Assembly (NCBI GenBank): GCA_044373655.1
Contig: JBILPS010000004.1
Span: forward strand, 6,902 to 70,901
Reading direction: 5' to 3'
Origin: Rhodoferax sp.
Lineage (GTDB): Bacteria; Pseudomonadota; Gammaproteobacteria; Burkholderiales; Burkholderiaceae_C
Length of the DNA: 64,000 nucleotides
Numbering within the stretch: the stretch's first letter is position 1; every line of letters starts with the position of its first letter. The position numbers and the translations under genes are program-made. Under the pieces are notes generated by a model. That model made no database searches and was not told the DNA's origin. It saw only the letters and a program-made list of their open reading frames with translations. Shown here in pieces: positions 37,755-64,000 of this stretch.

Positions 37755-38339
37755 CTACTGCTCCTTTGCCGGCTCCTGCAACACCGCCGGGTCAAAGGGC
37801 TGGCGGGCAAACACCTGGCGCAGCAGGGGCGCGAAGTGCGCCAGCGCGCGGCTGGGGTAGGCGGGGTCAAACGCCGTCTGGTCATACAGCGCGCAAAAGC
37901 GCTGGCAGCTGGCAAACCACGGGTGCTGGGCGTAGGCCAGGTGCCCGTCGTTCGGTTTGCCCAGATGGTGGGCATAAAACTGCATTTGAAACAGGCCGTG
38001 CATTTCTACCACCCAGGTCACCTCGGCGCGCACATAGGGCCTCAAAATAGCGGCGGCCATTTGCGAATGGTTGTCTGGCGCCAGCACGTCGCCAATGTCG
38101 TGCAAGAGCGCGGCCACCACCATGTCGATGTCGGCGCCATCGTCCTCGGCCCGGCTGGCGCTTTGCAGCGAGTGCTCTAGGCGGCTGATCTGGTAGCCCG
38201 GCAAAGATTCGCTCAAGTCTTGCAAAGCCGCCAGCAAGCGGTCGGGCAGCGTGCGGATATAAGCCTGCTCCAGGCGGTGCAGCAACTGGTAGTCCTCTGC
38301 CGTGCCGTCTTGCATTTGGGTGAATGTCACGTGTTGCAT
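37755..38339 (-). CDS. HD-domain protein with a PhnZ/MIOX-like diiron ligand pattern
   Basis: H56 (RLEHSLQ), H80-D81 (LLHDIGD), H91 (DNHS), H114 (EMHG), D153 (YDQ). Confidence 0.8.
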   Translation of the reverse strand: MQHVTFTQMQDGTAEDYQLLHRLEQAYIRTLPDRLLAALQDLSESLPGYQISRLEHSLQSASRAEDDGADIDMVVAALLHDIGDVLAPDNHSQMAAAILRPYVRAEVTWVVEMHGLFQMQFYAHHLGKPNDGHLAYAQHPWFASCQRFCALYDQTAFDPAYPSRALAHFAPLLRQVFARQPFDPAVLQEPAKEQ

Positions 38340-38405
38340 ACGCGTCTTTCAGATGGGGGGGCTCATCGGTCCAGCGCGATTGTGCACCCCCCGCGGACTC
38401 TGCCC

Positions 38406-39665
38406 TTATTCGGCATCCTGCGGCAAGGCACGCGGATCCATTTGCAGAGCCGCTTGGGAGCTGGCGTCCATCATCACGTAGTCGGAGCGCGGCGCGGCCG
38501 TCTCGATGTGCAGACTTTGGCCCAACATAAAGTAGCGCACCGTGCCCGCCAGCGCCAGCAGCACCAGCGCAAAGTACAGCATCAGGCTCTCGGGGCCCAG
38601 GTAGTCCATCATGCCGCCAGCCATGGTCGGACCCAGGGTGGCGCCTATGCCGTAGAGCAGCAGCAGGCCGCCGGTGGTTTCCAATACTTTGGAAGGCTCG
38701 ATCAAGTCATTGGTGTGCGCCACGCTCAGGCCGTAAATCGAAAACGAAAGCGCGCCGTACAAAATACCCAATATCACCAGCAGGTTTTCATATTCGCGGG
38801 CCAGGTAAAAACCCACGGCAGCGAGCAAGCCAGAGATCAGGCAAACCCAGACCAGCATCCAGCGCCGGTCGTAACGGTCGGACAAATGCCCCACCGGGTA
38901 CTGAAATGCGGCGCCGCTCAAAATCGTGGCGGCCATAAAGGTCGCGGTGTGGCTGTCGCTAAAGCCCACGCCCGCACCAAACACATTGCCCAGGCTGTAA
39001 AAAGTGCCGCTGATCAAACCCGAGCCCATGGAGGCGATGGCGCCAATCGGCGAAATGGCGAACAAGTGCACCAGGCTCATGGACGGTGCATGGGCTTGCT
39101 TGGGTTCGCGGATGGTCGTCATGGTGGTGGGCACCAGGGCGAAGGAAAACAAAATGGAGACAAAAGCAAAAGGCACAAAGCCGAAGCGGTCGCCCGCCAG
39201 AATCAGCCACTGTCCCAGCGCAGTAGACACGCCGGTGACCGCCATATAGGCCGCAAACACCTTGCCCCGGCTTTCACGTCCGGCCACCACATTGAGCCAG
39301 CTCTCAATCACCATATACAGCCCCACAATGCACAGCCCCGTGATAAAGCGCAGCAAGCCCCAGAACCAGGGGTTGGTCCACAAAGCATGCAGCACCGGCA
39401 GGGCCGAGGCCACCGAGGCCATGACGGCAAAAGCACGGATATAGCCCACACGCCGAATCAGGCCTGGGCAGGCATAGGTGCCATAGACAAAACCGGCGAA
39501 ATAGGCCGACATAATCATGCCAGTGACCAGGCCCGAATACTTGGCCAGACCGGCCTGCGCGCCAATCGCCACGGTCAGTAGCGCAATGCCTACGACCAAC
39601 AAACTGACGCCCGACAGCAGGGACGCCAAGGGTAGCGTTAGCGGGGAAAAACGAGGGAGTTGCAT
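38406..39665 (-). CDS. MFS transporter (YcaD-like)
   Basis: About 12 hydrophobic segments; IESWLN, GHLSDRYDRR MFS motif; start re-called at MQLPRF. Confidence 0.88.
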   Translation of the reverse strand: MQLPRFSPLTLPLASLLSGVSLLVVGIALLTVAIGAQAGLAKYSGLVTGMIMSAYFAGFVYGTYACPGLIRRVGYIRAFAVMASVASALPVLHALWTNPWFWGLLRFITGLCIVGLYMVIESWLNVVAGRESRGKVFAAYMAVTGVSTALGQWLILAGDRFGFVPFAFVSILFSFALVPTTMTTIREPKQAHAPSMSLVHLFAISPIGAIASMGSGLISGTFYSLGNVFGAGVGFSDSHTATFMAATILSGAAFQYPVGHLSDRYDRRWMLVWVCLISGLLAAVGFYLAREYENLLVILGILYGALSFSIYGLSVAHTNDLIEPSKVLETTGGLLLLYGIGATLGPTMAGGMMDYLGPESLMLYFALVLLALAGTVRYFMLGQSLHIETAAPRSDYVMMDASSQAALQMDPRALPQDAE

Positions 39666-39839: not shown

Positions 39840-39898
39840 ACCTTTAGCACCCCGGTGCAAACAGTCGCCCTACAGTGGCATTTAGACGGAAACCCTGC

Positions 39899-40642
39899 AT
39901 GCACCCACAAGCCCTGCTGACCCCTGAGCGCATCGACTTGGCCGCTGCCTTTCGCTGGGCCGCGCGCTGGGATATGCATGAGTCCATCGCCAACCACTTC
40001 AGCCTGGCAGTCTCCGAAGGCGGCAAGCAGTTTTTACTCAACCCGGTGGGCAGCCATTTTTCGCGCATCCGCGCCAGCGATCTGCTGCTGCTTGATGCAG
40101 ACCACAGTGGCGAGGACATCGCCGCCCTGGGCGCCGACCCCACCGCCTGGAACCTGCACGCCACGCTGCACCAGCGCCTGCCGCAAGCGCGCTGCATCTT
40201 GCACACCCACATGCCCTATGCCACCGCGCTGTGCTGCCTACAAGATTTTGAATGGCTGGCGCTGGACCAAAACGCCTGCCGCTTTTACGGCCGCATCGCC
40301 TATGACCGGCATTACGCGGGAATGGCTTTAGACGCATCGGAAGGCGAACGCGTGGCCGCCCTGCTGCAAGACGGCAAAAACGTGCTCTTTCTGGGCAACC
40401 ACGGCGTGATCGTCATGGGCCCGAGCGTGGCGCAGGCCCTGGACGAACTCTATTACCTGGAAAAAGCCGCCAAAGTGCAGGTGCTGGCCCTGTCCACCGG
40501 CCGGCCGCTGGCTCTGATACCGGACGCGGTGGCGCGCCAGGCCTGCGCCCAATGGAACGATTACCCTAGCGACTCCTGCGCCCTGCACTTGCAGGCGCTC
40601 AAAGCCATCCTTGACCTCGAAGAAACGGACTACGCACTATGA
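39899..40642 (+). CDS. Class II aldolase/adducin-family metalloenzyme
   Basis: [39 protein letters not shown] metal-binding His motifs; start re-called at 39899. Confidence 0.88.
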
Positions 40643-41526
40643 ACCCCAACGTCATCATCACCTGCGCCCTGACGGGAGCGGGCGACACCGTCGGCAAACA
40701 CCCGGCTATCCCTGTCACGCCCACCCAGATCGCGGCAGCGGCGGTAGAGGCGGCTAAGGCCGGCGCCACCGTGGTGCACTGCCATGTGCGCAACCCCGAG
40801 AACGGCAAATTCAGCCGCGACCCGGCGCTGTATGCCGAGGTGATGGACCGCATCCGCGATTCGGGTGTCGATGTCATCGTCAACCTGACGGCGGGCATGG
40901 GTGGCGACCTGGAAATCGGCCCCGGCGAGCACCCGACGCAGTTTGGCCCCAACACCGACCTGATTGGGCCCATGGCGCGCCTGATCCATGTGGAGCAATT
41001 GCTGCCCGAAATTTGCACCCTGGACTGCGGCACGCTCAACTTCGGCGATGGCGACACGATTTATGTCTCCACCCCGGTCGCCCTGCGCGCGGGCGCAAAG
41101 CGCATTACCGAGTTAGGCGTGAAAGCCGAACTCGAAATCTTTGACACCGGCCACCTCTGGTTTGCCAAGCAAATGATCAAAGAAGGCCTGTTGGAGAACC
41201 CGCTGTTCCAACTGTGCCTGGGCATTCCCTGGGGTGCACCGGCCGATACCACCACCATGAAAGCCATGGTGGACAACCTGCCGCCGGGCGTGGTGTGGTC
41301 AGCGTTTGGTATTGGTCGCTCGCAAATGCCGATGCTGGCGCAGTCGGTGATTTTGGGTGGCAATGTGCGTGTCGGCCTGGAAGACAACCTCTGGCTGGAC
41401 AAAGGCGTGCCCGCCAGCAATGGCTCGCTCACCGAGCGGGCGGTGGAAATCATCACCCGCCTGGGCGGCAAGCCCATGACACCGGCCGAAGGCCGCGTGG
41501 CCATGGGCCTGAAAAAGCGCGGATAA
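40639..41526 (+). CDS. cdhC: Beta-keto acid cleavage enzyme (BKACE/DUF849), 3-dehydrocarnitine cleavage type
   Basis: [44 protein letters not shown]; immediately upstream of carnitine dehydrogenase. Confidence 0.87.
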
Positions 41527-41539
41527 ACCAAGGAAAACT

Positions 41540-42505
41540 ATGTCGTTTGTTACTGAAATCAAGACTTTTGCTGCGCTAGGCACCGGCGTGATTGGCAGCG
41601 GTTGGGTGGCGCGCGCGCTGGCCCACGGCCTGGACGTGATCGCCTGGGACCCGGCCCCCGGCGCCGAAGCGGCGCTGCGCGAGCGCACCGCCAAAGCCTG
41701 GGGGGCGCTGACGGCGCAAGGCCTGGCACCGGGCGCTTCGCAGTCGCGCCTGAAGTTTGTCGCCACCGTAGAGGAATGTGTGGCGCAGGCCGACTTCATC
41801 CAAGAAAGCGCGCCCGAGCGCCAAGACTTGAAGCTGGCGCTGCATGCACAAATCACCGCCGCCGCGCGCCCCGATGTGCTGATTGGCTCGAGCACCTCGG
41901 GCCTCTTGCCCAGCGATTTTTATGCCGATGCAAAGCACCCCGAGCGCTGCGTCGTGGGCCACCCGTTTAACCCGGTGTATTTGCTGCCTTTGGTGGAAGT
42001 AGTGGGCGGCGTCAACACGGCGCCCGAGGCGATACAAGCGGCCATGCAGGTGTACCGGTCTTTGAGCATGCGCCCCTTGCATGTGCGCAAAGAGGTGCCC
42101 GGCTTTATCGCCGACCGCCTGTTAGAGGCCATGTGGCGCGAGTCGCTGCACCTGGTCAACGACGGCGTGGCCACCACCGGCGAAATTGACGACGCCATCC
42201 GCTTTGGCGCCGGTATGCGCTGGTCGTTTATGGGCAGTTTTTTGATTTATACGCTGGCCGGTGGCGACGCGGGTATGCGCCACTTTATGGCGCAGTTCGG
42301 CCCGGCGCTCAAACTGCCCTGGACCAAGCTGGAGGCGCCCGAGCTCACCGACAGCTTGCTCGACGCGGTGGCCGACGGTAGCGAAGTGCAACTCGACGGG
42401 CGCAGCATCGCCGACTGGGAGCGTTACCGCGACGATTGCCTGATGGCGGTGCAAGCGGCCATTAAAGCCACCAAACTCAAACACGGTATCGCGCCCGATG
42501 CCTGA
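41540..42505 (+). CDS. cdhA: L-carnitine 3-dehydrogenase
   Basis: [68 protein letters not shown]. Confidence 0.92.
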
Positions 42506-42983
42506 GACCTTGCTCACCTTCGAAACCCCGGTCATCAGCGACTGGGTGGACTTCAACGGCCATTTGCGCGATGGCTTTTACATGGTCTTGTTCAGCTACG
42601 GTGTCGATGGCCTGATGGACCAGATCGGCCTGGACGCCGCCGGGCGCCAAGCCACCGGGCACTCTTTCTTTACGCTGGAAGCGCACGTGAATTTTTTGCA
42701 CGAGGTCAAGCTCGGGGCCCAAGTGCAGGTCTATTGCCAGGTACTCGGCCATGACGCCAAACGCCTGCATGTCGGCCTGGCCTTGCACATCAAAGGCAAT
42801 TCCACTGTGATGGCCTACAGCGAGCAAATGCTGCTGAACGTGGACATGGACGGGCCGCGTGCCAGCCCCTTTGCCCCAACCGTGGCGGCGCGGGTGCAGA
42901 TGCTGGCCACCGCGCAGCGCAGCCTGCCGCGACCGTCCTACGTGGGGCGGGTGATCAGCCTGCCTGCGGCCAAAGCCGCCTAG
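42498..42983 (+). CDS. cdhB: Hotdog-fold thioesterase (betainyl-CoA thioesterase, CdhB-like)
   Basis: [36 protein letters not shown]; overlaps the cdhA stop. Confidence 0.85.
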
Positions 42984-42986
42984 GCC

Positions 42987-44081
42987 ATGGCCGCAGCCGC
43001 CCTGCTCCCGGAGCGCATGCACGGCGTGCTGTTGACCGGCTTTGGCGGCCCCGAGCAATTGCAGTACCGCGAGGACTTGCCCGTGCCGCTGCCGCGCGCA
43101 GGGGAAGTGCTGATCCGGGTGGCGGCCAGTTCGGTGAACAACACCGACATCAATACCCGCGTCGGCTGGTACTCCAAAACCGTGGGCGGGCCGACGCAGC
43201 ACGCCTCGGTGGGCTTTGATGCCGACAATGACTCAGCGCCTTCTTGGGGTGGCGCGGCCTTGCAGTTTCCACGCATCCAAGGCGCCGATTGCTGCGGGCA
43301 CATCGTGGCCGTGGGCACGGGCGTGGACAGCGCACGCATTGGCCAGCGCGTGCTGGTGCGCCCGGTGCTGCGCAAGGCCGGTGCCGCCAGCTACGACTTT
43401 GACTACTTCGGCTCGGAATGCGACGGCGCTTTTGCGCAATACACACGCGTGGCCGCCAGCGCCGCCATGGCAGTGCAAAGCACATTAAGCGATGCCGAAC
43501 TGGCCTGCCTGCCCTGCGCCTGTTCCACCGCCGAGAACCTGCTGACACGTGCCGGCGTAAAAGCGGGCGAGCGCGTACTGATTACCGGCGCCTCCGGTGG
43601 CGTGGGCAGTGCGGCAGTGCAACTGGCCCACTTGCGCGGTGCGCAGGTGATTGCGCAGGCCGATAGCAGCAAACACGCCGTCCTGAACACGATTGGCGCA
43701 AAGCACACCCTGGCCCGCGACGCCGATGCGCTGCAGGCCCTGGGCAAAGACAGCGTAGCCGTGGTGATCGACTTGGTGGGCGGGCCGGCCTGGCCATCGC
43801 TCTTAGAGGTGCTGCAACGCGGCGGGCGCTACGCCACAGCCGGGGCCATCGCCGGCCCCTTGGTGACTTTGGATTTGCGCACGCTCTATCTCAAAGATTT
43901 ACAACTGCTGGGCTGCACCTGGCAGGAGGATGCGGTGTTTGAACAATTGCTTGGCTATGTGGAGCGCGGCCAACTGACACCCCTCTTGGCGCGCACTTAC
44001 GATTTACGCGACATGGCGCAAGCGCAGGCCGAGTTTGTGGCCAAGCGCTTTGTGGGCAAGATCGCAATCAAGATTCCTTAA
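42987..44081 (+). CDS. MDR-superfamily oxidoreductase (alcohol dehydrogenase/quinone reductase-like)
   Basis: SVNNTD, IQGADCCG, ITGASGGVGSAAVQLA, RFVGKIAI. Confidence 0.85.
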   Translation: MAAAALLPERMHGVLLTGFGGPEQLQYREDLPVPLPRAGEVLIRVAASSVNNTDINTRVGWYSKTVGGPTQHASVGFDADNDSAPSWGGAALQFPRIQGADCCGHIVAVGTGVDSARIGQRVLVRPVLRKAGAASYDFDYFGSECDGAFAQYTRVAASAAMAVQSTLSDAELACLPCACSTAENLLTRAGVKAGERVLITGASGGVGSAAVQLAHLRGAQVIAQADSSKHAVLNTIGAKHTLARDADALQALGKDSVAVVIDLVGGPAWPSLLEVLQRGGRYATAGAIAGPLVTLDLRTLYLKDLQLLGCTWQEDAVFEQLLGYVERGQLTPLLARTYDLRDMAQAQAEFVAKRFVGKIAIKIP

Positions 44082-44138
44082 GCGCAGCTTGGCCCCAGCC
44101 ATGTTTGTCATTGACCACACCCCGTAAGGACTCGCACC

Positions 44139-44699
44139 ATGTCCAGCCCCCCCAAACGCCTGAGTACGCCGCTAGAAGGAACCCCCGCCAAGGCCTGGGA
44201 CGCTAGCGCCGCGATTACAGCGCCCCTGTGTTTGCACCAGCCCCATGTCCTAGCTGAATGGGTGGACTACAACGGGCATATGAGCGAGTCCTGCTTTTTG
44301 CTGGTGTTTGGCGACAACTCGGATGCGTATTTCCGCTTTATCGGCATTGACGAAAGCTACCGCGATCTGGACAAGAAATCTTTTTACACCGTGCAAACCC
44401 ATATTCACAATATCCGCGAAGTGGCCGAAGGGGAGCCTTTGCGCCTGACGCTGCAGGTGCTAGACATGGACGACAAGCGCATGCATATTTTTCATGCGAT
44501 GGTCCACGGCACAGACGGCTATTTAATAGCCACCGGCGAGCAAATGCTGGTGCATGTGGATATGGCGCAAGGCCGCGCGGCACCCATGCCTGATGCGCTG
44601 CACCAGCGCGTTGCCGCTGTGCACCGCGCGCACAGTGCCCTTCCCCGCCCCGCGCAGGCCGGACAGCCACTGGGCATACGGCGCAAGACGCTCACTTAA
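44139..44699 (+). CDS. Second hotdog-fold thioesterase, similar to the C-terminal domain of fused carnitine dehydrogenases
   Basis: EWVDYNGHMSES, SFYTVQTHI, ATGEQMLVHVD. Confidence 0.8.
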   Translation: MSSPPKRLSTPLEGTPAKAWDASAAITAPLCLHQPHVLAEWVDYNGHMSESCFLLVFGDNSDAYFRFIGIDESYRDLDKKSFYTVQTHIHNIREVAEGEPLRLTLQVLDMDDKRMHIFHAMVHGTDGYLIATGEQMLVHVDMAQGRAAPMPDALHQRVAAVHRAHSALPRPAQAGQPLGIRRKTLT

Positions 44700-44762
44700 G
44701 CGCGTACCGCAGCCACTTTTTTTACCTACTCAAACACCTCTACCCCCGCGAAAAGGCCCCCC

Positions 44763-45935
44763 ATGCAATTTGCCCTGAGCCATGAACAAACCATGATCGT
44801 GGATACCGTCCGCGCCTTTGTGGAAAACGAGCTGTACCCGCACGAAGACCTGGTAGAGCGCACCGATGCCATACCGGCGGAGCTGGTGCAGTCCATCCAG
44901 GCCAAAGCCATTGAAGTGGGTTTGTACGCAGCCAATATGCCCGCTGAATTAGGCGGCGGCGGGCTGGACAATTTCACCGTGGCGCTGCTCGAACGCGAGC
45001 TGGGGCGTGCATCGTACGGACTGCAGATGCTGGTAGCGCGGCCCAGCAATATTTTGCGTGCCTGCCAGGGTGCGCAGATTGAGGAATACCTGCTGCCCAC
45101 GATACGCGGCGAGCGCCACGATTGCCTGGCCATGACCGAGCCCAATGCCGGCTCCGACGTGCGCGGCATGCAAACCCGCGCCAGCCGTGACGGCAGCGGC
45201 GAAAACGCCGACTACCTGATCAACGGCACCAAGCACTTCATCAGCCACGCCGATATGAGCGACTTTGTGGTGCTGTTTGCCGCCACCGGCGTAGAAGACA
45301 CCAGCCACGGGCCGAAGAAAAAAATCACCGGTTTTCTGGTGGACCTGAACTCGCCTGGCCTGACGGTGCGGCGCGGTCCGGCGTGTGTGTCCCACCGGGG
45401 CTACCACCAGTGCGAATTGTTTTTTACCGACTGCCGCGTACCCGCCTACAAGCGCTTGGGCGAGGAAGGCCGGGGCTTTGATTTGATGGGCGAATGGCTG
45501 GGCGCCACGCGCCTGACGGTGGCCGCCACCAGCGTAGGGCGCGGTCAGCGTGTCATGGAAATGGCCACGCAGTGGGCCGCCACACGCAAGCAATTTGGCC
45601 AGGCGATTGGCAAGTTTCAGGGTACGGGTTTCAAGCTGGCCGACATGGCCACCGAGCTGGCCGCCGCCGAGTTACTGACCTTGCAAGCGGCCTGGAAATG
45701 CGACCAGGGCACCATGAGCGATTCGGACGCGGCCATGGCCAAGCTGTTTGCATCGGAAGCGCTGGCGCGGGTGACCGATAACGCGCTGCAAATTTTTGGT
45801 GGCATGGGGCTGATGGACCAATTGCCCATAGAACGCTTCTGGCGCGATGCGCGGGTGGAGCGCATTTGGGACGGCACCAGCGAAATCCAACGCCACATTA
45901 TTTCGCGCGCCATGTTGCGCGTGCATGGCGGTTAA
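44763..45935 (+). CDS. Acyl-CoA dehydrogenase (candidate gamma-butyrobetainyl-CoA dehydrogenase)
   Basis: AMTEPNAGSD, NGTKHFIS, RKQFGQAIGKFQG, RVERIWDGTSEIQR. Confidence 0.9.
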   Translation: MQFALSHEQTMIVDTVRAFVENELYPHEDLVERTDAIPAELVQSIQAKAIEVGLYAANMPAELGGGGLDNFTVALLERELGRASYGLQMLVARPSNILRACQGAQIEEYLLPTIRGERHDCLAMTEPNAGSDVRGMQTRASRDGSGENADYLINGTKHFISHADMSDFVVLFAATGVEDTSHGPKKKITGFLVDLNSPGLTVRRGPACVSHRGYHQCELFFTDCRVPAYKRLGEEGRGFDLMGEWLGATRLTVAATSVGRGQRVMEMATQWAATRKQFGQAIGKFQGTGFKLADMATELAAAELLTLQAAWKCDQGTMSDSDAAMAKLFASEALARVTDNALQIFGGMGLMDQLPIERFWRDARVERIWDGTSEIQRHIISRAMLRVHGG

Positions 45936-45937
45936 GC

Positions 45938-52652: not shown

Positions 52653-52667
52653 GAAAGACCGAAGGGT

Positions 52668-54367: not shown

Positions 54368-55954
54368 TCAGATATTAGAGTCTGGAAACGAAGCCTTGCG
54401 CCGGTTGACGTAGTCCAGCACGGCCTCGTCGGCGGCCGGGTCCAGGGCCGGGGCTTCGTACTCCGCCAGGTTTTTCTTCCACAGGGAATTGGCGCGCACT
54501 GACAGGTCCACGCCGCCTTCAGCTTCCCATTGCTCAAAGCTGTTGTTGTCAGTTATCGGCGAGCGGTAAAACGCGGTTTCGAAGTTGGCCTGGGTGTGGG
54601 CGCAACCCAAAAAGTGTTTGCCCGGGCCGACTTCGCGGATGGCGTCCATGGCCTGGCCGTTTTCGCTCATGTCCACACCAGCCATCAAGGTGTGCATCAT
54701 GCCGGCCTGGTCGCAGTCCATGATGAATTTTTCATAGCCCATGGACAAGCCGCCTTCGAGCCAACCGGCGGTATGCAGCACAAAGTTGACGCCGGCCAGG
54801 CAGGTGGGAATCATGGTGTTGGCCGATTCGGAGGCGGCTTGCGCATCGGCAATTTTGGAGCCGCACAAACCACCACCGGAGCGAAAGGGCACGCCCAGAC
54901 GGCGCGCCAGGGCGGCCATCACATACAGCACCAGCGCCGGTTCCGGCGTACCAAAAGTGGGTGCGCCCGACTGCATAGACACCGAAGACGCAAAACTGCC
55001 CAGCACCACCGGCGCGCCGGGGTTGACCAGTTGCACAAAAGCCATACCCGCCAGGGCTTCGGCCAGGGTTTGCGCGCAGGTGCCGGCCACGGTGACCGGC
55101 GACATGGCGCCAGCCAAAATAAAGGGCGTGATGATGGTGGCCTGGTTGGCCCGCGCATAGACCTTGGCCGCGCCCAGCATGGTCTCGTCAAAGGTCATGG
55201 GCGAGTTGGCGTTGATCAGGCTGATGCAGACGGTGCGGTTTTTACCCGTGGCCGGGTCGATAAAGTTGTCGCCAAACAGTCGCGCCGCCATTTCCACCGT
55301 GTCTTGCGCACGCTCAGGTTTGGTGACCGAGCCCATAAAGGGCTTATCGCTGTACTTCATGTGCGCATAGACCATGTCGAAATGGCGCTTGTTCACCGGC
55401 AGGTCCACCGGCTCGCAAATCGTGCCACCGCTGTGGTGAATGGAATTGGCCATATAGGCCAGCTTCACAAAGTTTTCAAAGTCATGCAAGGTGGCGTAAC
55501 GCCTGCCTTTGTCCAGATCGCGCACAAAGGGTGAGCCATAGGAGGGGGCAAACACGGTGTTCTTGCCGCCGATGACGACGTTATGCGCCGGATTGCGCGC
55601 GTATTGGGTAAATTGGCGCGGCGCGCTGGCTTGCACAATGGCGCGGCACATGCCACCAGGAAAGCGCACGCGCTCGCCCGTGACTTCAGCCCCGGCTTTG
55701 CGCCAGATGTCCAGCGCTTCAGCGTCGTCACGAAAATCGATGCCGACTTCTTCCAAGATCGTGTTGGCATTGCGCTCGATGATGGCCAGGCCTTCTTCGT
55801 CCAGCACTTCGTAAAAGGGAATGTTGCGCGTAATAAAAGGCGCGGCTTGTGCGCTGCGGGCAGAACGCAAGGCGCGCTTGGCTTCACGGCCTCCGGCACT
55901 GCGGCGGGTGCGCGGCGCGCTGTCGGCGTCAGTCAGGGTCACACTATCGTCCAT
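54368..55954 (-). CDS. mttB: Trimethylamine methyltransferase family protein without pyrrolysine (MtgB-like, candidate betaine demethylase)
   Basis: ILEEVGIDF, GSPFVRDLD.GRRYAT, INANSP, MQSGAPTFGTPE, HTAGWLEGGL; open frame with no in-frame amber; start re-called at 55954. Confidence 0.87.
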   Translation of the reverse strand: MDDSVTLTDADSAPRTRRSAGGREAKRALRSARSAQAAPFITRNIPFYEVLDEEGLAIIERNANTILEEVGIDFRDDAEALDIWRKAGAEVTGERVRFPGGMCRAIVQASAPRQFTQYARNPAHNVVIGGKNTVFAPSYGSPFVRDLDKGRRYATLHDFENFVKLAYMANSIHHSGGTICEPVDLPVNKRHFDMVYAHMKYSDKPFMGSVTKPERAQDTVEMAARLFGDNFIDPATGKNRTVCISLINANSPMTFDETMLGAAKVYARANQATIITPFILAGAMSPVTVAGTCAQTLAEALAGMAFVQLVNPGAPVVLGSFASSVSMQSGAPTFGTPEPALVLYVMAALARRLGVPFRSGGGLCGSKIADAQAASESANTMIPTCLAGVNFVLHTAGWLEGGLSMGYEKFIMDCDQAGMMHTLMAGVDMSENGQAMDAIREVGPGKHFLGCAHTQANFETAFYRSPITDNNSFEQWEAEGGVDLSVRANSLWKKNLAEYEAPALDPAADEAVLDYVNRRKASFPDSNI

Positions 55955-56159: not shown

Positions 56160-57563
56160 ATGTCTTTAAGCGTTTTTGACCTTTTCAAGATCGGAATCGG
56201 CCCCTCGTCTTCGCACACCGTAGGGCCGATGAAGGCGGCCGCCATGTTCGCCAAAGCGCTGGCGCAGGACGCCATGCTGGCCGCCACCGCGCGGGTGGAA
56301 GTGCGTTTGTACGGATCGCTGGGCGCCACCGGCAAAGGCCACGGCACCGATACCGCCGTGATGCTGGGTCTGGAAGGCCTGATGCCCGATAGCATAGACC
56401 CGGACAGCATCGATGCGCGGCTGAAGAAAATACGCAAAGAAAAAGTCCTTCAGCTGCACGGCAGCCACCCGATTGCCTTCGCTGAAAAAAGCGATGTGCT
56501 GTTTTTGCGGCGCGAAACCCTGTCCTTCCATCCCAATGGCGTGAAGTTCATGGCTTTGGACGCGGCAGGCGGCCTGCTGCAAGAGCGGCGTTATTTTTCG
56601 GTGGGCGGCGGATTTGTGGTCTCACAGGAAGACGCCGATGCCGAACACGCCGCCACCCAGGAAGCACCGCGCATCGTGGCCGACCGCACCGTGCTGGCCT
56701 ATCCATTCTTAAGCGGCGACGCCTTGCTAGACATCACCGCCAACACCGGCATGTCGATTGCCCAGGTGATGCGCGCCAACGAGCACGCCTGGCGCACCGA
56801 TGAAGAGGTCGATGCCGGCTTGGATGCGATTTGGGACGCCATGAAGGCCTGCGTGGCACGCGGCATACGCACTGATGGCCATCTGCCCGGCAACCTGATG
56901 GTCAAGCGCCGGGCTGCCGAATTGCACCGCAGCCTGAGCAGCCGCCCCGAAGAGGCGCTGCGCGACCAATTAACGATTTTGGACTTTGTCAACGTCTATG
57001 CCATGGCGGTGAACGAAGAAAACGCTGCGGGTGGCCGGGTAGTGACGGCGCCCACCAATGGTGCGGCCGGCATCATGCCGGCAGTCATGCACTACTACGA
57101 GCGCTTTATTTCCGGCGCTAACCAGCAAGGCATACGCGACTTTTTGCTCACCGCTGGGGCCATTGGCATCCTGTACAAAGAAAACGCTTCTATTAGCGGC
57201 GCCGAAGTGGGCTGCCAGGGCGAAGTGGGCGTAGCCTGCTCGATGGCAGCGGCCGGGCTGGCAGCCGTAATGGGCGGCACACCGGCCCAGGTAGAGAACG
57301 CGGCTGAGATCGGCATGGAACACAACCTGGGCTTGACCTGCGATCCGGTCGGCGGACGGGTGCAGATTCCCTGCATCGAGCGCAACGCCATGGGCTCGGT
57401 CAAAGCGCTGAACGCGGCCCGCATGGCTATGCGCGGCGACGGCACGCACTTTGTGTCGCTGGACCAGGTGATTAAAACCATGCGTGATACGGGGCGTGAC
57501 ATGATGACAAAATACAAAGAGACCAGCCGGGGCGGGCTGGCCGTCAATGTAATCGAGTGCTAA
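56160..57563 (+). CDS. sdaA: L-serine ammonia-lyase (Fe-S)
   Basis: [67 protein letters not shown]. Confidence 0.97.
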
Positions 57564-57571
57564 CCATCCGT

Positions 57572-57961
57572 ATGCTTTCGCTAAAAATTCTGAGACCTTG
57601 GCTGCTCCTGGGCCTTTGCGCGCTCACCGCTGCGTCTGCCGCCCTAGCCCAAGAGGGAGAGGCTTGCCGCAGCCTGTGCCGCTCGGAAAAAGCGCAATGC
57701 AGTAAAAATAATGGTCCCAGCGCCTGGCTGGGCGCAGCGACCTTGTTTTTGCACGACTCCCTGAGCGCGTGGCGCACGCGCAGCGGCACGCTGACCGACT
57801 CTTCGCAATGGCTGCAGCAACGCAGCGACAACAACAGCGACCGCAAAAGCGCCACCCAAGAACTGCAACAGCAGTGTGAAAACCAATTTATGCAATGCGC
57901 GCAGGCCTGCACAGCCAGCACTGTGCCCGCCGCGCCGTCTTCATCACCTCAGCCGCAATGA
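57572..57961 (+). CDS. Small secreted hypothetical protein with mirror-image Cys motifs
   Basis: Signal-peptide-like N-terminus ending ALA-QE; C-X3-C-X6-C and C-X6-C-X3-C; fills the sdaA-soxB gap on the coding strand. Confidence 0.65.
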
Positions 57962-57971: not shown

Positions 57972-59222
57972 GTGAGCCATTTTTCTATTTTTGCGCTGGC
58001 GCGCAACGCCATGTCTTACCACGAGAACTGGCAAAAACAATGGCGCAGCCCCGAACCTAAAGCCAGCTATGACGCCATCATTGTCGGCGGCGGTGGACAC
58101 GGTTTAGCCACCGCCTATTACCTGGCCAAAGAACACGGCATGCGCAATATCGCGGTCGTAGAGCGCGGCTGGCTGGGCGGCGGTAATACCGCGCGCAACA
58201 CCACCATCGTGCGTTCCAACTACCTGTGGGATGACGCCACGCACCTGTATGAAAAAGCCTTGCAACTGTGGGAAGGTTTGTCGCAAGACCTGAACTACAA
58301 CACCATGTTCAGCCAGCGCGGCGTGATGAATGTGGGCCACTCCCTGCAAGACATGCGCGACATCGAACGCCGCGTCAATGCCAACCGCCTAAATGGCGTC
58401 GATGGCGTGGTGCTGACGCCCGCGCAAATCAAGGCCATGGTGCCCATCATGAACACCAGTGACAGCCTGCGCTATCCGGTCATGGGCGCATCCTTTCAGC
58501 CGCGCGGCGGCGTGGCCCGCCACGACGCCATCGCCTGGGGCTTTGCCCGCGCTGCCGATCGCCTGGGCGTGGACATCATCCAAAACTGCGAAGTCATTGG
58601 CGTGCAGCGCGAAGGCGACCAGGTGGTGGGCATCGAGACCACACGCGGCGTGATCAAGAGCAAAAAAATCGGCGTGGTGGCAGCGGGCCACAGCAGCGTG
58701 ATTGCCAGCATGGCCGGTATCCGCCTTCCGCTGGAAAGCCATCCGCTGCAAGCGCTGGTGTCCGAGCCCATGAAGCCGATTTTGCATACGGTCGTGATGT
58801 CCAACGCCATCCACGCCTACGCCAGCCAGTCGGATAAAGGTGACTTGGTGATCGGCGCAGGTATCGACTCGTATGTGGGCTACGGCCAGCGCGGCAGCTT
58901 CCCCATCATTGAGCACACGCTGCAAGCGATTTGCGAACTCTTCCCCATCTTTCGGCGCGTACGCATGAACCGCCAATGGGGCGGCATTGTGGACGTGGCA
59001 CCGGATGCCTGCCCGATTATTTCCAAGACCCATATTAAAGGCCTGTACTTCAACTGTGGCTGGGGCACCGGCGGCTTCAAAGCCACCCCCGGCTCGGGCT
59101 GGGTGATGGCGCACACCATGGCGCAGGACCGGCCCCATGCACTCAATGCGGCTTTTGAACTCAATCGCTTTAACACCGGGCACCTGATTGATGAGCATGG
59201 TGCGGCGGGTGTGGCGCATTGA
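57972..59222 (+). CDS. soxB: Heterotetrameric sarcosine oxidase beta subunit
   Basis: [61 protein letters not shown]; GTG start at 57972. Confidence 0.96.
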
Positions 59223-59518
59223 GGTTTGGATATGTTTGAAAATTTTCCCTGCGGGACCTTTGTTTATCCCCCGCTTCCCCCCCCGCCCCTTCACCCCCGC
59301 CGGGGTGAAGGGGAGCTTGAACAGCCCATTTCTTTTTTTTGGCCTGTTAGAGACTTTGGTGCGAGCGCTTGCGATACGGATTTGCGTGCTGAGATGGGTG
59401 GGCGCGGCGGTCGTAGTCAATGGCTTGGGGCTTGGCTACTTTCTTTTGGCGAAGCAAAAGAAAGTAGCTCGGCCAACCGGCCAAAACCAGTATTCAAAAA
59501 CATTAAACAAAAACTAAC
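59223..59518. repeat. ~296-bp palindrome-rich insert between soxB and soxD (MITE/REP-like)
   Basis: Perfect 12-bp stem CCCCTTCACCCC/GGGGTGAAGGGG (59286-59313); perfect 14-bp stem GCTACTTTCTTTTG-GCGAAG-CAAAAGAAAGTAGC (59435-59468); poly-C and poly-T tracts. Confidence 0.7.
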
Positions 59519-59815
59519 ATGCTAAAAATTACCTGCCCCTGGTGCGGCCCGCGCGCCGAAAGTGAATTTAGCTGCGGCGGCGAGGCGCATATTGCGCGGC
59601 CGCTGGATACCGATGCCCTGACGGATGCGCAATGGGGCGACTATTTGTTCATGCGCAAAAATCCCAAAGGGCTGCACCGCGAACAATGGTTGCATGCAGC
59701 CGGTTGCCGCCGCTGGTTCAATGCCGAGCGCAACACCGTGAGCTACCAATTCAGCAAGTTTTACAAACCCGGCGAAAACCCTGACGCAGCGCCCGGCGCA
59801 GGAGCAGCACCATGA
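59519..59815 (+). CDS. soxD: Sarcosine oxidase delta subunit
   Basis: ITCPWCGPR.ESEF, WGDYLFMRKNPKG, HAAGCRRWFN Zn site. Confidence 0.95.
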   Translation: MLKITCPWCGPRAESEFSCGGEAHIARPLDTDALTDAQWGDYLFMRKNPKGLHREQWLHAAGCRRWFNAERNTVSYQFSKFYKPGENPDAAPGAGAAP

Positions 59816-62814
59816 GCGGGCAACGTGTACCGAACCTGGGCAGCCGCATCGACCGCAAAGCCCCGCTCCGCTTCACCTTCAATGGCCGCAGCTTTAGCGG
59901 CTATGCCGGCGACACCCTGGCTTCGGCCTTGCTGGCAGCCGGCGAGAGCTTGTTTTCGCGGTCCTGGAAATACCACCGCCCGCGCGGCATCGTCACCTCG
60001 GGCATTGAAGAGCCCTCGGCATTGGTGCAGGTGGAGCGCGGTGCGCACACCATCCCCAATGCCAAGATGCCCGAAGTCGAGTTGTATGAAGGCTTGTATG
60101 CCGAGAGCGTGAACGGCTGGCCCGGTTTGCTCTCGCGCCTACTGAGCCCCAACCGCTGGGGCACGCCCCTGTTTCCGGCGGGCTTTTATTACAAAACCTT
60201 TATGTGGCCGGCCAAGGCCTGGATGTTTTACGAGCGATTTATCCGCAAGGCCGGTGGCCTGGGCGCAGCGCCTGAAGTGGAAGACACCGCACACTATGTG
60301 CACCAGAACATCCATTGCGATGTGTTCGTAGCTGGCGGCGGTATCGCCGGTCTGGCCGCCGCCCTGGCTGCAGGACGCAGCGGCGCGCGGGTTATCGTGG
60401 CCGAGCTGCAAGCCGAGCTCGGTGGCGCAGCGCACCGCTGCACCGGCACCATAGACGGCCAAGCGGCTAGCGACTGGGCGCGCGCTGCGGTGGCCGAACT
60501 GCAGGCCATGCCCGATGTGCGCATCATCCGCCGCGGCGTAGTGTTTGGCTACCATGACTACAACTTCCTGACCGTGCGCGAAGCGCTGAGCGACCACCTG
60601 CCTCTGGCAAAGCGCCAAGGCTTTCGCGAGCGCCTGTGCCGTGTGCGCGCAAGCCAAGTGGTGCTGGCCACCGGTGCGCATGAGCGGCCCATGGTGTTTG
60701 GCAATAACGACTTGCCCGGTGTGATGCTGTCCTCGGCGCTGGCTGACTACGCCACGCTCTATGGCGTACTCGCTGGCAAAAACATCGTGTTGCTGACGAA
60801 TAACGACAGCGCTTATGCCGACGCACTGGTGCTGCGTAAGGCCGGTGCAAACGTGAGCGTGGTCGATGCCCGCGCAAGCAACCCACCTGCTGGCGGTTTG
60901 GCGGAGCAAGCGCAAGACGCCGGCGTCATGGTGCTACGCAACCATGTGCCGGTGCAAGCCCATGGCAGCGTGCGCGTGAGCAGCATCGAACTGGCCGCGA
61001 TGAGCGGTGGCAAGGCCAGCGGCGCACGGCGCGTGCTAGCCTGCGACACCCTGGGCATGGCTGGCGGCTGGAACCCGGCGATCCATTTGTATTCGCACTC
61101 CGGCGGCAAAGCGGTGTGGAACGAGGCCTTGTGCTGCTTCACACCCGGTGCGGCGATTGCCGACCAACAGATTGTGGGCGCAGGCGCCGCACAGTTCGGT
61201 TTGGCGCAGACACTGCAAACGGCCAGCCAGGCCGGTGCGCTTGCTGCGCAGCGTGCTGGCTTTGTCGCGCAGGCCAGCAGCTACCCAGTCAGCGAAGCAG
61301 CGGGCGAAGCGATTGCAGCCTTTTGGATTGCCGAGACCGGCGAGCCGGTGTCACGCCGCAGCAAAGCCTTTATCGATTACCAAAACGATGTGGGCGCATC
61401 AGACATTGAGTTGGCAGTGCGCGAGGGCTTTGAATCCATAGAGCACATCAAGCGTTACACCGCCATGGGTTTTGGCACTGACCAGGGCAAGTTAGGCAAT
61501 ATCAACGGCATGGCGCTGGCCGCGCGCGCACTGGGCAAGCCCATCGGCCAGGTAGGTACCACCACCTTCCGGCCCAATTACATCCCCATCACTTTTGGCA
61601 CCTTGGCCGGTGTGGACCGGGGCGATTTGTTCGATCCAGCGCGCCACACCAGCCCACACCCGTTGCATATCGCCGCCGGTGCCTTGTTTGAGGACGTGGG
61701 CCAGTGGAAACGCCCCTGGTACTTCCCCAAGGGCAATGAAGATATGCACCAGGCAGTGCACCGCGAAGTGATGGCGGTGCGCGAAGGCGTGGGCATCATG
61801 GATGCATCGACGCTGGGCAAGATTGATATCCAAGGCCCGGACGCGGCCAAGCTACTGAACTGGATGTACACCAACCCCTGGCTCAAGCTAGATGTAGGCA
61901 AAGCGCGCTATGGCCTGATGCTGGACGAAAACGGCATGGTCTATGACGACGGCGTCACCGTGCGCCTGGGCGAGAACCATTTTGTGATGACCACCACCAC
62001 CGGCGGCGCTGCGCGTGTGCTCGGTTGGATGGAGCGCTGGGTGCAAACCGAATGGCCCGACATGCAGGTCTATATGACCAGCGTCACCGACCACTGGAGC
62101 ACCTTCGGCTTGGTCGGCCCCAAGGCACGTGCAGTGCTGGAAAAAGTCTGCAAAGACGTGGACCTGTCGCTGGCCGCTTTCCCGTTTATGAGCTACCGCG
62201 AAGGCACGGTGGCAGGTGTAGCGGCGCGCATTATGCGCATTAGCTTTTCGGGTGAGTTGTCGTTTGAGGTGAACGTGCCTTCGCACTATGGCGCTGCGGT
62301 CTGGGCCGCACTGATGGCAGCGGGCGAAGCGTTCAACATCACGCCCTACGGCACCGAAACCATGCACGTGCTGCGTGCGGAAAAAGGCTACATCATTGTC
62401 GGCCAGGATACCGATGGCTCAGTGACCCCGCACGACTTGGGCATGGGCGCCATGGTGTCCAAGACCAAAGACTTTTTGGGCCGCCGTTCGCTGTCGCGCA
62501 GTCATACCGCAGGCCCCAACCGCAAAGAACTGGTGGGCTTGCTCACCGAGGACCCGGCCGTAGTGCTGCCCGAAGGCGCACAAATCACGGAGGTGGGCGC
62601 GCCCGTTACCACGCCGGTGCCTATGCTGGGCCATGTGACTTCCAGCTACTACAGCCCCGCGCTCAAGCGCTCGATTGCCATGGCGCTGGTGCGCAATGGC
62701 CAGCAGCGCAGCGGCCAGCAAGTGCAAATACCGCTGGCCGATGGCCGCACCGTGCGCGCCACCGTAGGCAGCACGGTGTTTTACGATCCTGAAGGGAAAC
62801 GCCACCATGTCTGA
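59812..62814 (+). CDS. soxA: Sarcosine oxidase alpha subunit
   Basis: GDTLASALLA, KYHRPRG, GFYYKTFMWP, KRYTAMGFGTDQGK, GcvT-like C-terminus. Confidence 0.96.
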   Translation: MSGQRVPNLGSRIDRKAPLRFTFNGRSFSGYAGDTLASALLAAGESLFSRSWKYHRPRGIVTSGIEEPSALVQVERGAHTIPNAKMPEVELYEGLYAESVNGWPGLLSRLLSPNRWGTPLFPAGFYYKTFMWPAKAWMFYERFIRKAGGLGAAPEVEDTAHYVHQNIHCDVFVAGGGIAGLAAALAAGRSGARVIVAELQAELGGAAHRCTGTIDGQAASDWARAAVAELQAMPDVRIIRRGVVFGYHDYNFLTVREALSDHLPLAKRQGFRERLCRVRASQVVLATGAHERPMVFGNNDLPGVMLSSALADYATLYGVLAGKNIVLLTNNDSAYADALVLRKAGANVSVVDARASNPPAGGLAEQAQDAGVMVLRNHVPVQAHGSVRVSSIELAAMSGGKASGARRVLACDTLGMAGGWNPAIHLYSHSGGKAVWNEALCCFTPGAAIADQQIVGAGAAQFGLAQTLQTASQAGALAAQRAGFVAQASSYPVSEAAGEAIAAFWIAETGEPVSRRSKAFIDYQNDVGASDIELAVREGFESIEHIKRYTAMGFGTDQGKLGNINGMALAARALGKPIGQVGTTTFRPNYIPITFGTLAGVDRGDLFDPARHTSPHPLHIAAGALFEDVGQWKRPWYFPKGNEDMHQAVHREVMAVREGVGIMDASTLGKIDIQGPDAAKLLNWMYTNPWLKLDVGKARYGLMLDENGMVYDDGVTVRLGENHFVMTTTTGGAARVLGWMERWVQTEWPDMQVYMTSVTDHWSTFGLVGPKARAVLEKVCKDVDLSLAAFPFMSYREGTVAGVAARIMRISFSGELSFEVNVPSHYGAAVWAALMAAGEAFNITPYGTETMHVLRAEKGYIIVGQDTDGSVTPHDLGMGAMVSKTKDFLGRRSLSRSHTAGPNRKELVGLLTEDPAVVLPEGAQITEVGAPVTTPVPMLGHVTSSYYSPALKRSIAMALVRNGQQRSGQQVQIPLADGRTVRATVGSTVFYDPEGKRHHV

Positions 62815-63391
62815 TGCTGTTTTGCAAAGCCCCCTGGCGCCCTTGTTAGGCGCGGGCGACAAGTCTTTGGTGGTCGATGGTCAAGCCGTCGCGCTGGGCG
62901 AAGCGCCCTTAATGGATATGCTCAATTTGCGCGGCGATCCGGCAGACGCACGCTTTTGCAGCGCAGTGCACACGGTGACCGGCCTGGCACTGCCCTTAGT
63001 AGCCAATACCGCCAGTATGGGCACAGATCGCCAACTACTCTGGCTGGGTCCAGACGAATGCTTGCTGCAATGCCCAATAGGGCAAGGTGATGCGCTCGAA
63101 GCCGCATTGCGCGAAGCGATGCCCGGGCAGCACATGGCAATCGTGAACGTGGGCCATGGCAATACCGTGCTGCGGGTCCAAGGCCCGGGCGCGGCGGACT
63201 TGCTCTCGCGCGGCTGCCCCTTGGATTTTCACGCCCGCGTGTTTGCCGCCGGTCAGGTCGCCCAAAGCCATATCTCGCGCGCTAACGCGACGATTCTGTG
63301 CAAACAGGCCGGCAGCCACTATGAAGTCACCGTGCGCCGCAGCTTTGCCGACTACCTGTTTCGCTGGCTTTGCGCCGCAGCTGGTGCATGA
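62807..63391 (+). CDS. soxG: Sarcosine oxidase gamma subunit
   Basis: LNLRG, LWLGPDECL, LLSRGCPLDFH, VRRSFADYLFRWL. Confidence 0.93.
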   Translation: MSDAVLQSPLAPLLGAGDKSLVVDGQAVALGEAPLMDMLNLRGDPADARFCSAVHTVTGLALPLVANTASMGTDRQLLWLGPDECLLQCPIGQGDALEAALREAMPGQHMAIVNVGHGNTVLRVQGPGAADLLSRGCPLDFHARVFAAGQVAQSHISRANATILCKQAGSHYEVTVRRSFADYLFRWLCAAAGA

Positions 63392-64000
63392 GCTTTTCGC
63401 TCGGGATAGATACCGGCGGCACCTTTACCGACGCGGTGCTGCTCAATGCGGCGCGCGAGGTGGTGGCGGCGTCCAAAAGCCTAACTACCCGCTTTGATTT
63501 GGCGCAGGGCATAGCCGCGTCTTTGGACGGTCTGCCGCAAGATTTGTTGGCGCAAGTGGATTTGGTCTCCCTGTCCACCACGCTGACCACCAACTCGGTG
63601 GTCGAAGGCAAAGGCGCGCCGGTCTGCGCGCTGCTGGTGGGCTATGACGCGCAGCAAATCAAAACCAGCGGGCTTGCCGACTTACTGGGCCTGGACGCGA
63701 TTGAAAGCCTGGCCGGCGGACATGATGCAGCAGGCTTGCCTCTGTGCGCGCTGGACGAGGTGGCCTGCCGCGCCGCCATTGCCAAGCACGCGGGGCGGGT
63801 ATCGGCGTTTGCGATTTCGGCCACCTTTGCGGTGCGTAACCCGGCGCATGAAAACCAGTTACGCGCCTGGGTGCAGCAACACTGCGACACGCCGGTCACC
63901 TGCGGGCATGAGCTGGCCTCCAGCCTGGGCGCGCCGCGCCGGGCCCTAACAGCCGCGCTCAATGCACGCATGATTTCGCACGTCAAAACCCTGATCGATT
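63388..64000 (+). CDS. Hydantoinase/oxoprolinase (HyuA-like) family protein (partial, runs off the right edge)
   Basis: Not in the ORF track. My translation gives MSFSLGIDTGGTFTDAVLL...STTLTTNSVVEGKG...NPAHE...TCGHELASSLGAPRRALTAALNARM; the ATG overlaps the soxG stop (ATGA). Confidence 0.88.
   Translation, partial: MSFSLGIDTGGTFTDAVLLNAAREVVAASKSLTTRFDLAQGIAASLDGLPQDLLAQVDLVSLSTTLTTNSVVEGKGAPVCALLVGYDAQQIKTSGLADLLGLDAIESLAGGHDAAGLPLCALDEVACRAAIAKHAGRVSAFAISATFAVRNPAHENQLRAWVQQHCDTPVTCGHELASSLGAPRRALTAALNARMISHVKTLID

Follow-up and report, generated by a model that had tools for sequence, protein, structure and literature searches.

The question raised by this locus is whether a cluster of quaternary-amine genes in a freshwater bacterium contains one undescribed catabolic branch or a known pathway with separate additions. 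The locus lies at 37755-64000 of a 64,000-nucleotide stretch of a Rhodoferax sp. assembly (GCA_044373655.1, contig JBILPS010000004.1), which is referred to as the window. An earlier note on this sequence read the region as a funnel leading from gamma-butyrobetaine and carnitine to glycine betaine and sarcosine. It further proposed that the genes not needed by the known pathway (here called orphans) form a single upstream branch feeding another trimethylammonium compound into this funnel. Based on open reading frame (ORF) listing, translation, and NCBIfam and Pfam scans, every gene class named in that note was found in the region, and the reading as a quaternary-amine funnel stands. We consider it probable that the region is a mosaic catabolic island built around the pathway characterised in Sinorhizobium meliloti and Pseudomonas, with the orphans as separate accessory modules. 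As nitrogen-rich osmolytes, carnitine, gamma-butyrobetaine, and glycine betaine occur in abundance, and the organisms and routes that degrade them shape carbon and nitrogen turnover in lakes and the sea, as well as trimethylamine formation in the gut.

The core of the region is a nine-gene operon on the plus strand (39896-48860), in which neighbouring genes overlap or are separated by gaps of at most 63 bp. Its genes are as follows.

39896-40642, plus strand: class II aldolase/adducin-family protein (hereafter Ald2), which opens the operon (NCBIfam PRK07490, 322 bits; Pfam Aldolase_II PF00596, 142 bits)
40639-41526, plus strand: BKACE-family enzyme, putative dehydrocarnitine cleavage enzyme (CdhC-like; Pfam PF05853, 313 bits)
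41540-42505, plus strand: L-carnitine 3-dehydrogenase (CDH; CdhA/LcdH), matching NCBIfam equivalog PRK07066 over its full length (610 bits, cutoff 414)
42498-42983, plus strand: thioesterase TE1, putative betainyl-CoA thioesterase (CdhB-like; 4HBT_2)
42987-44081, plus strand: MDR-superfamily oxidoreductase (closest structure the uncharacterised PDB 4j6f, E 1e-85)
44139-44699, plus strand: thioesterase TE2, putative L-carnitinyl-CoA thioesterase (4HBT_2)
44763-45935, plus strand: acyl-CoA dehydrogenase (ACAD), putative gamma-butyrobetainyl-CoA dehydrogenase (BcoC-like; four ACAD Pfam domains)
45935-48085, plus strand: fused ADP-forming acyl-CoA synthetase of 716 aa, putative gamma-butyrobetaine-CoA ligase (BcoAB-like; CoA_binding_2, Succ_CoA_lig, and ATP-grasp_5)
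48078-48860, plus strand: crotonase, putative crotonobetainyl-CoA hydratase (CaiD/BcoD-like; best NCBIfam match PRK03580, 363 bits)

Here, we propose a pathway in which all substrates are assigned from gene family and context. Gamma-butyrobetaine (also crotonobetaine or carnitine) would enter the cell through an Opp-type ABC importer and/or an MFS transporter encoded beside the operon. The fused ADP-forming ligase would form butyrobetainyl-CoA, which would be converted to crotonobetainyl-CoA by the ACAD and then to L-carnitinyl-CoA by the CaiD-like hydratase. After release of L-carnitine by TE2, CDH would make 3-dehydrocarnitine, and BKACE would convert this compound and acetyl-CoA to betainyl-CoA and acetoacetate, the products reported for BKACE. 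Glycine betaine would be released from betainyl-CoA by TE1. Further down, SoxBDAG would oxidise sarcosine, and SdaA would deaminate serine. The ligase has the architecture of BcoAB, with fused domains and an operon shared with an acyl-CoA dehydrogenase and a crotonase; the S. meliloti bcoAB genes have been used as a butyrobetaine-CoA ligase, according to a paper that cites the original work. The hydratase matches PRK03580 more than 100 bits above the next family and is CaiD-like by context, not an ortholog of Escherichia coli CaiD.

The second thioesterase, one of the orphans, can be placed in the same scheme. TE1 (121 bits) and TE2 (159 bits) both match the thioesterase domain at the C-terminus of PRK07531, the model for the fused carnitine dehydrogenase, so that the second thioesterase can be mapped to a known step. 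The dehydrogenase/thioesterase fusion of S. meliloti is reported, again in a citing paper, to be bifunctional. From gene position and family, the natural inference is that two genes replace the one fused domain, with TE2 acting on L-carnitinyl-CoA and TE1 on betainyl-CoA. TE2 is kept before the ACAD gene in all Burkholderiales loci.

A gene cluster of S. meliloti reportedly converts gamma-butyrobetaine to L-carnitine and then to glycine betaine. The present region shares the gene families and the logic of that bco/cdh cluster (Bazire et al. 2019), as far as its description in citing papers allows the comparison. It differs in having two free-standing thioesterases where S. meliloti, according to the same papers, has one domain fused to the dehydrogenase, in holding aldolase-like and MDR genes within the operon, in being flanked by MFS and Opp-type ABC genes, and in its betaproteobacterial host. 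The CDH-BKACE-thioesterase trio is likewise that of the cdhCAB genes of Pseudomonas aeruginosa and P. putida, which convert carnitine to glycine betaine (Wargo and Hogan 2009; Meadows and Wargo 2018). Compared with Pseudomonas, the window lacks a CdhR-type regulator and a CaiX-type binding protein, and the CoA-dependent butyrobetaine genes share the operon.

Related loci were collected in a scan anchored on the ligase as the query, which gave 80 loci at one genome per species. The closest ones belong to metagenome-assembled genomes of lake-water Comamonadaceae/Rhodoferax (82-94% identity), and metagenomes that contain the window sequence are lake and freshwater ones only. The betaproteobacterial host suspected earlier is thus confirmed as a lake-water, Rhodoferax-like member of the Comamonadaceae. 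The core order BKACE-CDH-TE1-TE2-ACAD-ligase-hydratase is conserved throughout Burkholderiales, and the core was also found in the alphaproteobacterium Oricola, with a single thioesterase-like stretch. Because this order recurs in dozens of related loci, the clustering is not a product of chance. The BKACE gene adjoins the CDH gene here and in every related locus holding both. The ACAD-ligase-hydratase triad is kept in nearly all related loci long enough to show it, with the ACAD conserved at 82-98% in Burkholderiales. These points (gene families, gene order, and conservation) are direct observations.

The orphans behave differently from one another in the same loci. Their presence was counted by tblastn of all window proteins against the 80 loci, and the denominators are the informative loci. 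The MDR gene is present in 24/46 loci; it was found in 24 of the 25 with a ligase identity of ~70% or more and in none of the 21 at 55-70%, where TE1 is followed directly by TE2. The Ald2 gene occurs in 19/37 loci, always immediately upstream of BKACE. The MFS gene (23/33) is divergent and adjoins the operon, and the HD-domain gene (12/23) is confined to closer clades. The ABC system (34/59) comes after the hydratase gene in 27 of 28 close loci and in 7 of 18 more distant ones, and its ATPase gene is followed by an MttB gene in 17 of 20 loci. The orphans have been gained and lost independently of one another.

This independence bears directly on the proposal that the HD protein, aldolase, MDR oxidoreductase, second thioesterase, hydantoinase-like protein, MFS transporter, and ABC importer constitute one undescribed branch. 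The contiguity of the region, the embedding of Ald2 and MDR in the operon, and the presence of MFS, TmpA-like, and HD genes beside the operon of sister loci would all agree with such a branch. Ald2 and MDR also have homologs amid quaternary-amine genes in Alphaproteobacteria and on a Pseudomonas plasmid. The expected co-occurrence with cdh/bco genes held for Ald2, the MFS transporter, the Opp-type ABC importer, and MttB, which accompany them widely in Burkholderiales, and for Ald2 and the ABC system on a Shinella plasmid; it failed for the orphans as one unit, as they vary independently. Moreover, the 21 loci without MDR keep the rest, and the partners of the embedded genes differ elsewhere, Ald2 being found with BKACE or a dioxygenase resembling gamma-butyrobetaine dioxygenase (BBOX), and MDR with an MR/MLE gene and a betaine-type substrate-binding protein (SBP). 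The absence of a TmpA-like gene from the window, the linkage of the hydantoinase-like gene to MttB/corrinoid genes, and a more than 10-fold spread of expression depth between orphans, all described below, argue against the single branch as well, and we regard it as quite improbable. Nor are all the extra genes foreign to known pathways: the second thioesterase, the transporters, and the HD protein map to known kinds of steps. A narrower claim survives: one, perhaps two, of the embedded genes encode uncharacterised enzymes tied to carnitine metabolism.

Of the orphans, Ald2 alone is linked to carnitine genes repeatedly in different bacterial classes and yet has no step assigned to it. It belongs to the class II aldolase/adducin superfamily by its domain and histidines. 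The histidines of its HxH and NHG motifs, which we take to be metal ligands as is general in the family, and an NHFS motif are invariant in eight diverse homologs. Its stop codon overlaps the BKACE start by 4 bp, and the same overlap was found in five of seven sampled homologs of 70-89% identity; of the other two, one has cytochrome oxidase genes around it and one adjoins a GMC oxidoreductase gene. A homolog of ~50% identity adjoins BKACE on a Shinella plasmid. In Sulfitobacter and Paracoccus, the Ald2 homolog adjoins a BBOX/TmpA-like dioxygenase gene, beside cdh/bco genes in the former and among betaine-transport and choline-type genes in the latter, and a Pseudomonas plasmid carries one among choline-type genes. 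The neighbourhood with BKACE or a BBOX-like dioxygenase thus spans freshwater Betaproteobacteria, Rhizobiaceae, and Roseobacter-group plasmids. An Arctic SAR11 island has been published with a gene list that places ADH, CDH, BKACE, class II aldolase, and thioesterase together. This list is the sole mention in the literature examined, which describes neither an enzymatic dehydrocarnitine decarboxylase nor a class II aldolase in carnitine catabolism.

Going by the names of the matched families, the non-sugar members of the class II aldolase superfamily are mostly decarboxylases of beta-keto-acid-like substrates, and this is why 3-dehydrocarnitine is considered as the substrate. Our best guess is that Ald2 is a metal-dependent enzyme that would act on carnitine or 3-dehydrocarnitine in a reaction of the beta-keto-acid decarboxylase or C-C lyase type. 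A more specific version, which we offer tentatively and hold to be less than even in likelihood, is that PRK07490-type Ald2 is an unrecognised enzyme of carnitine/gamma-butyrobetaine metabolism that catalyses a novel metal-dependent conversion of 3-dehydrocarnitine or of a closely related compound (e.g., decarboxylation to trimethylaminoacetone or C-C cleavage to betaine aldehyde), and that the Opp-family ABC system is a dedicated carnitine/butyrobetaine importer.

On plasmids of Paracoccus seriniphilus and Sulfitobacter (L085 7991-10886 and L175 5826-7681), the Ald2-like gene is paired with a TauD-family dioxygenase gene, whose product scores about 250-260 bits on the TmpA model and equally on that for gamma-butyrobetaine dioxygenase. 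The Paracoccus version also has a HIBADH-like dehydrogenase, and the three genes may represent an unassigned quaternary-amine module.

The MDR gene starts 3 bp after the TE1 stop codon, as an insertion between the two thioesterase genes that is limited to one sub-clade, in which its identity is 66-93%. Its best family matches are of the quinone oxidoreductase and enoyl-CoA reductase types, all below cutoff. Homologs of 55-57% identity occur in Paracoccus, Shinella, and Leisingera, where they are partnered by an MR/MLE gene resembling cis-3-hydroxyproline dehydratase and an SBP gene of the glycine-betaine type. These features suggest that one Comamonadaceae sub-clade recruited MDR, probably as a reductase or dehydrogenase that depends on NAD(P)H and has a betaine as its substrate; it is less surely unexplained than Ald2. 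A role as a zinc alcohol dehydrogenase, such as a D-carnitine dehydrogenase, was considered and left open: no classical Cys/His zinc motif was seen by eye, and the best families are those named above. Separately, a single contig from metatranscriptome run X24 passes from the end of the CDH gene straight into TE2 at residue ~36 and skips TE1-MDR (window 42506-44247). It would fit a population variant without the MDR insertion; one side of the junction is backed by only 29 letters, too weak to use.

Both embedded genes could instead be passengers with general cellular roles, brought into the operon by rearrangement and without a part in quaternary-amine metabolism. Their patchy distribution and the low metatranscriptome depth over both genes fit this explanation. 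It also draws on the surroundings of some homologs, since Ald2 relatives lie amid cytochrome oxidase genes (70% identity), by unrelated genes (74%), and in a purine-catabolism context (45%), and the genes around MDR homologs in Agrobacterium vitis and Antarctobacter give no clue to function. A passenger would not be expected to keep the 4-bp overlap with BKACE, or to recur with BKACE or a BBOX-like gene on Shinella, Sulfitobacter, and Paracoccus plasmids and in the reported SAR11 island. The close spacing of MDR behind TE1 and its retention across its clade likewise speak against it. We consider the passenger explanation unlikely.

Beside the operon, a divergent pair of genes lies on the minus strand, 66 bp apart, with the HD gene downstream of the MFS gene.

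37755-38339, minus strand: HD-domain protein with a PhnZ/TmpB-like fold of the mixed-valent diiron oxygenase type (Pfam HD; weak Phn-HD/TmpB matches)
38406-39665, minus strand: MFS transporter (Pfam MFS_1), divergent from the carnitine operon

The sequence matches of the HD protein to PhnZ and TmpB are local and weak, and its scores fall below both equivalog cutoffs (TmpB NF049941, 29.5 bits against 300; Phn-HD TIGR03276, 42 bits against 215). The fold is clearer. Full-length Foldseek matches of its AlphaFold model (pLDDT 87) were obtained only with PhnZ (TM 0.62-0.70) and TmpB (TM 0.60-0.65), in alignments of 174-185 columns at about 20% identity, and the next matches had E values of 0.02 or worse. 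In other Burkholderiales, HD homologs of 70-76% identity always directly follow a TauD-family TmpA-like gene. Against the NCBIfam model for TmpA, with its cutoff of 400, the products of these genes score 393-405 bits, and 380-405 bits when the relatives are taken together. In sister loci L016, L018, L077, and L179, such a gene sits between the MFS and HD genes beside the carnitine operon, and the partner is also present in L089, L090, and L092. No TmpA-like sequence was found anywhere in the window, and the HD gene has no hydroxylase partner of the TmpA or PhnY* type there. The modeled fold and these neighbourhoods indicate that the HD protein is an orphaned, divergent member of the TmpB/PhnZ family.

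TmpA and TmpB of Leisingera caerulea are described as converting trimethylaminoethylphosphonate to glycine betaine and phosphate (Rajakovich et al. 2019), and the HD protein therefore represents a known kind of feeder step. It would be the C-P-cleaving half of a TmpA/TmpB-like pair yielding glycine betaine from a trimethylaminoethylphosphonate-type compound, with the hydroxylase missing in this lineage. With TmpA/TmpB and PhnY*/PhnZ the window thus shares the fold and its relatives share the two-gene architecture; the weak TmpB score and the missing TmpA-like gene set it apart. The earlier guess of a phosphonate betaine was right in kind for the HD gene, as judged from its homologs, and lacks its TmpA-like counterpart in the window itself.

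Downstream of the operon, the hydratase gene is followed by the importer.

49098-54284, plus strand: Opp/Dpp/Nik-family ABC importer, with SBP (49098-50672), permeases (50848-51795 and 51819-52652), and a fused double ATPase (52668-54284)

On a Shinella sumterensis plasmid, the gene order is hydratase, ligase, CDH-like, Ald2-like, BKACE, and then the homologous SBP, permeases, and fused ATPase (the SBP is 38% identical to that of the window, the membrane and ATPase parts 52-55%). From this linkage to bco/cdh genes, we infer that the importer is an uptake system for betaines of the carnitine/butyrobetaine type. There is precedent for a peptide/nickel-family ABC importer of a betaine in Prb, described as an Opp-like proline betaine transporter of S. 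meliloti (Alloing et al. 2006); such transporters need not carry peptides, and the likeness drawn here is at the level of family. Service to the core pathway fits both the MFS and the Opp-type ABC transporters.

Expression was approximated by contig depth in four lake metatranscriptomes, a crude measure in which related populations were matched at >=90% identity. The SBP gene had the highest depth in the region (48-267), followed by the MttB gene (35-177). BKACE-CDH-TE1 was intermediate (5-45), and the stretch from MDR to the hydratase, as well as HD, MFS, and Ald2, was low (0-17). This shows that the region is transcribed in situ, and unevenly.

The remainder of the region is devoted to methyl-group, serine, and sarcosine genes.

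54368-55954, minus strand: non-pyrrolysine MttB-superfamily methyltransferase (closest structure the uncharacterised 4yyc, 762 bits; 45% identity to MtgB)
56160-57563, plus strand: L-serine ammonia-lyase SdaA (TIGR00720, 693 bits, cutoff 345)
57557-57961, plus strand: small Cys-rich ORF of 134 aa between sdaA and soxB, with a signal-peptide-like N-terminus and no family match
57975-59222, plus strand: soxB (TIGR01373, 700 bits, cutoff 529)
59519-59815, plus strand: soxD (TIGR01374, 117.4 bits, cutoff 116.5)
59812-62814, plus strand: soxA (TIGR01372, 1342 bits, cutoff 1164)
62807-63391, plus strand: soxG, at the expected position (TIGR01375, 117 bits, below the cutoff of 144)
63388-64000, plus strand: hydantoinase-A-like protein, N-terminal 204 residues of ~690 aa, cut by the window end

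The MttB-family protein resembles MtgB of Desulfitobacterium hafniense (Ticak et al. 2014; Picking et al. 2026), also an MttB-superfamily member without pyrrolysine. Three of the four glycine-betaine-binding residues of MtgB are kept (Y97, R312, and H348), and F356 aligns with Gly. It differs from the MtgB system in this residue, in its aerobic host, and in having no corrinoid protein, MtgA, or RamA/RACo gene nearby; neither a corrinoid protein, a corrinoid:tetrahydrofolate methyltransferase, nor a reductive activase was found among the annotated genes of 33-64 kb. The protein may demethylate glycine betaine or another acidic betaine in a corrinoid-dependent reaction; its corrinoid partners and a dimethylglycine step are absent from the window. 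MttB-type demethylation is thus plausible but unproven.

The sarcosine oxidase genes stand in the order B-D-A-G of the heterotetrameric SoxBDAG, with soxB, soxD, and soxA above their cutoffs. At 293 bp, the spacer between soxB and soxD (59226-59518) is unusually long; its coding potential is low, and a GC-rich hairpin within it, CCCCTTCACCCC-GCCG-GGGTGAAGGGG, resembles a REP-like element or an internal terminator. The small Cys-rich ORF is weakly conserved: tblastn gave matches of 37-43% at this position in L006, L010, L011, and L013.

The hydantoinase-like gene, which had been counted with the upstream branch, has its connections at this end. A full-length homolog of 96% identity (L093) contains Hydant_A_N and a partial Hydantoinase_A domain and no HyuB partner; in seven loci, a conserved 244-aa ORF without a family match, and not HyuB, stands behind the gene. 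It is preceded by soxBDAG in L094 too. Homologs of 46-49% identity precede MttB, corrinoid protein, and DUF1638 genes in four metagenome loci, two of which have an MTHFR-C-like gene and one of which also has a RACo activase and a homocysteine S-methyltransferase. Since its homologs precede MttB-corrinoid-DUF1638 genes, the hydantoinase-like gene belongs to the methyl-group end of the island. Judged by these neighbourhoods, this gene and the ORF that follows it in relatives appear to go with the MttB/sarcosine end, not with an upstream branch.

Two functions were considered for its product. A role as the corrinoid reductive activase was rejected, as L104 already has a RACo-type activase in the same cluster, and a role as an N-methylhydantoinase feeding sarcosine is not supported, as there is no HyuB partner. 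Among the soil/peat metagenome contigs, L104 (3419-8564 and 11142-13373) and L117 (9992-16049) carry hydantoinase-A-like, MttB, corrinoid protein, DUF1638, and MTHFR-C-like genes in a row, with the homocysteine S-methyltransferase and RACo-type activase as extras in L104. A recurrent role of hydantoinase-like proteins in MttB systems is not described in the literature examined.

The control of the island differs between relatives. A GlxA/CdhR-type regulator (DJ-1/PfpI with AraC-HTH), to be likened to the CdhR of Pseudomonas, is encoded between the hydratase and SBP genes of sister loci (12858-13853 in L016; the same position in most of L016, L018, L021, L070, L056, L029, and L053). It is missing from the whole 64-kb window, and regulation in this lineage must therefore come from elsewhere. 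No transcription regulator was found inside 37755-64000, and a search for riboswitches or other RNA elements tying the genes together gave only sub-threshold chance matches. The first 37 kb of the window hold no quaternary-amine genes or regulators; their content includes sugar ABC, glycerol-kinase-like, malate synthase G, benzoyl-CoA (box), and nodIJ-like genes.

Several observations weigh against the reading of the region as an island around the known pathway. The electron transfer flavoprotein, the corrinoid protein, a dimethylglycine-oxidising enzyme, GlyA, and a regulator are all absent from the window, and the funnel is consequently incomplete within it. The ACAD scores far under the CaiA cutoff, and the hydratase, at 363 bits, stays below the PRK03580 equivalog cutoff of 500 and cannot be counted as CaiD. 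F356 of MtgB is replaced by Gly in the MttB protein. One Ald2 homolog of 70% identity lies amid cytochrome oxidase genes and another by a GMC oxidoreductase gene without cdh genes, so the role of Ald2 may not be carnitine-specific. The contig depths, being crude and drawn from related populations, are a further weakness. Set against the conserved core, these points leave the island reading as the probable one. The region is the Comamonadaceae form of a known pathway cluster; its thioesterases are split, an Opp-type importer has joined it, and its several accessory modules were each acquired independently.

The S. meliloti-type CoA-dependent route is thus present in abundant freshwater Comamonadaceae and transcribed in situ. 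The recurrent genes around it that still lack an assigned step are those for the aldolase-like protein, the MDR reductase, the Opp-type importer, and the hydantoinase-like protein that accompanies MttB clusters. Their functions would sharpen the annotation of thousands of genomes.

Two further features were observed in the window outside the island. A benzoyl-CoA oxygenase (box-type) cluster at 19112-29575, unrelated to the carnitine island, comprises an AMP-forming ligase, a BoxC-like crotonase of 552 aa, a PaaA/BoxB-like oxygenase, a BoxA-like ferredoxin reductase, and a shikimate-kinase-fused HTH regulator, and is adjoined by a branched-chain-type ABC system. At 33981-36644, just upstream of srkA, a carotenoid/lignostilbene-type cleavage dioxygenase gene of the RPE65 family lies beside a class V aminotransferase gene; the dioxygenase is kept in the close relative L001, there without the adjoining aminotransferase gene.

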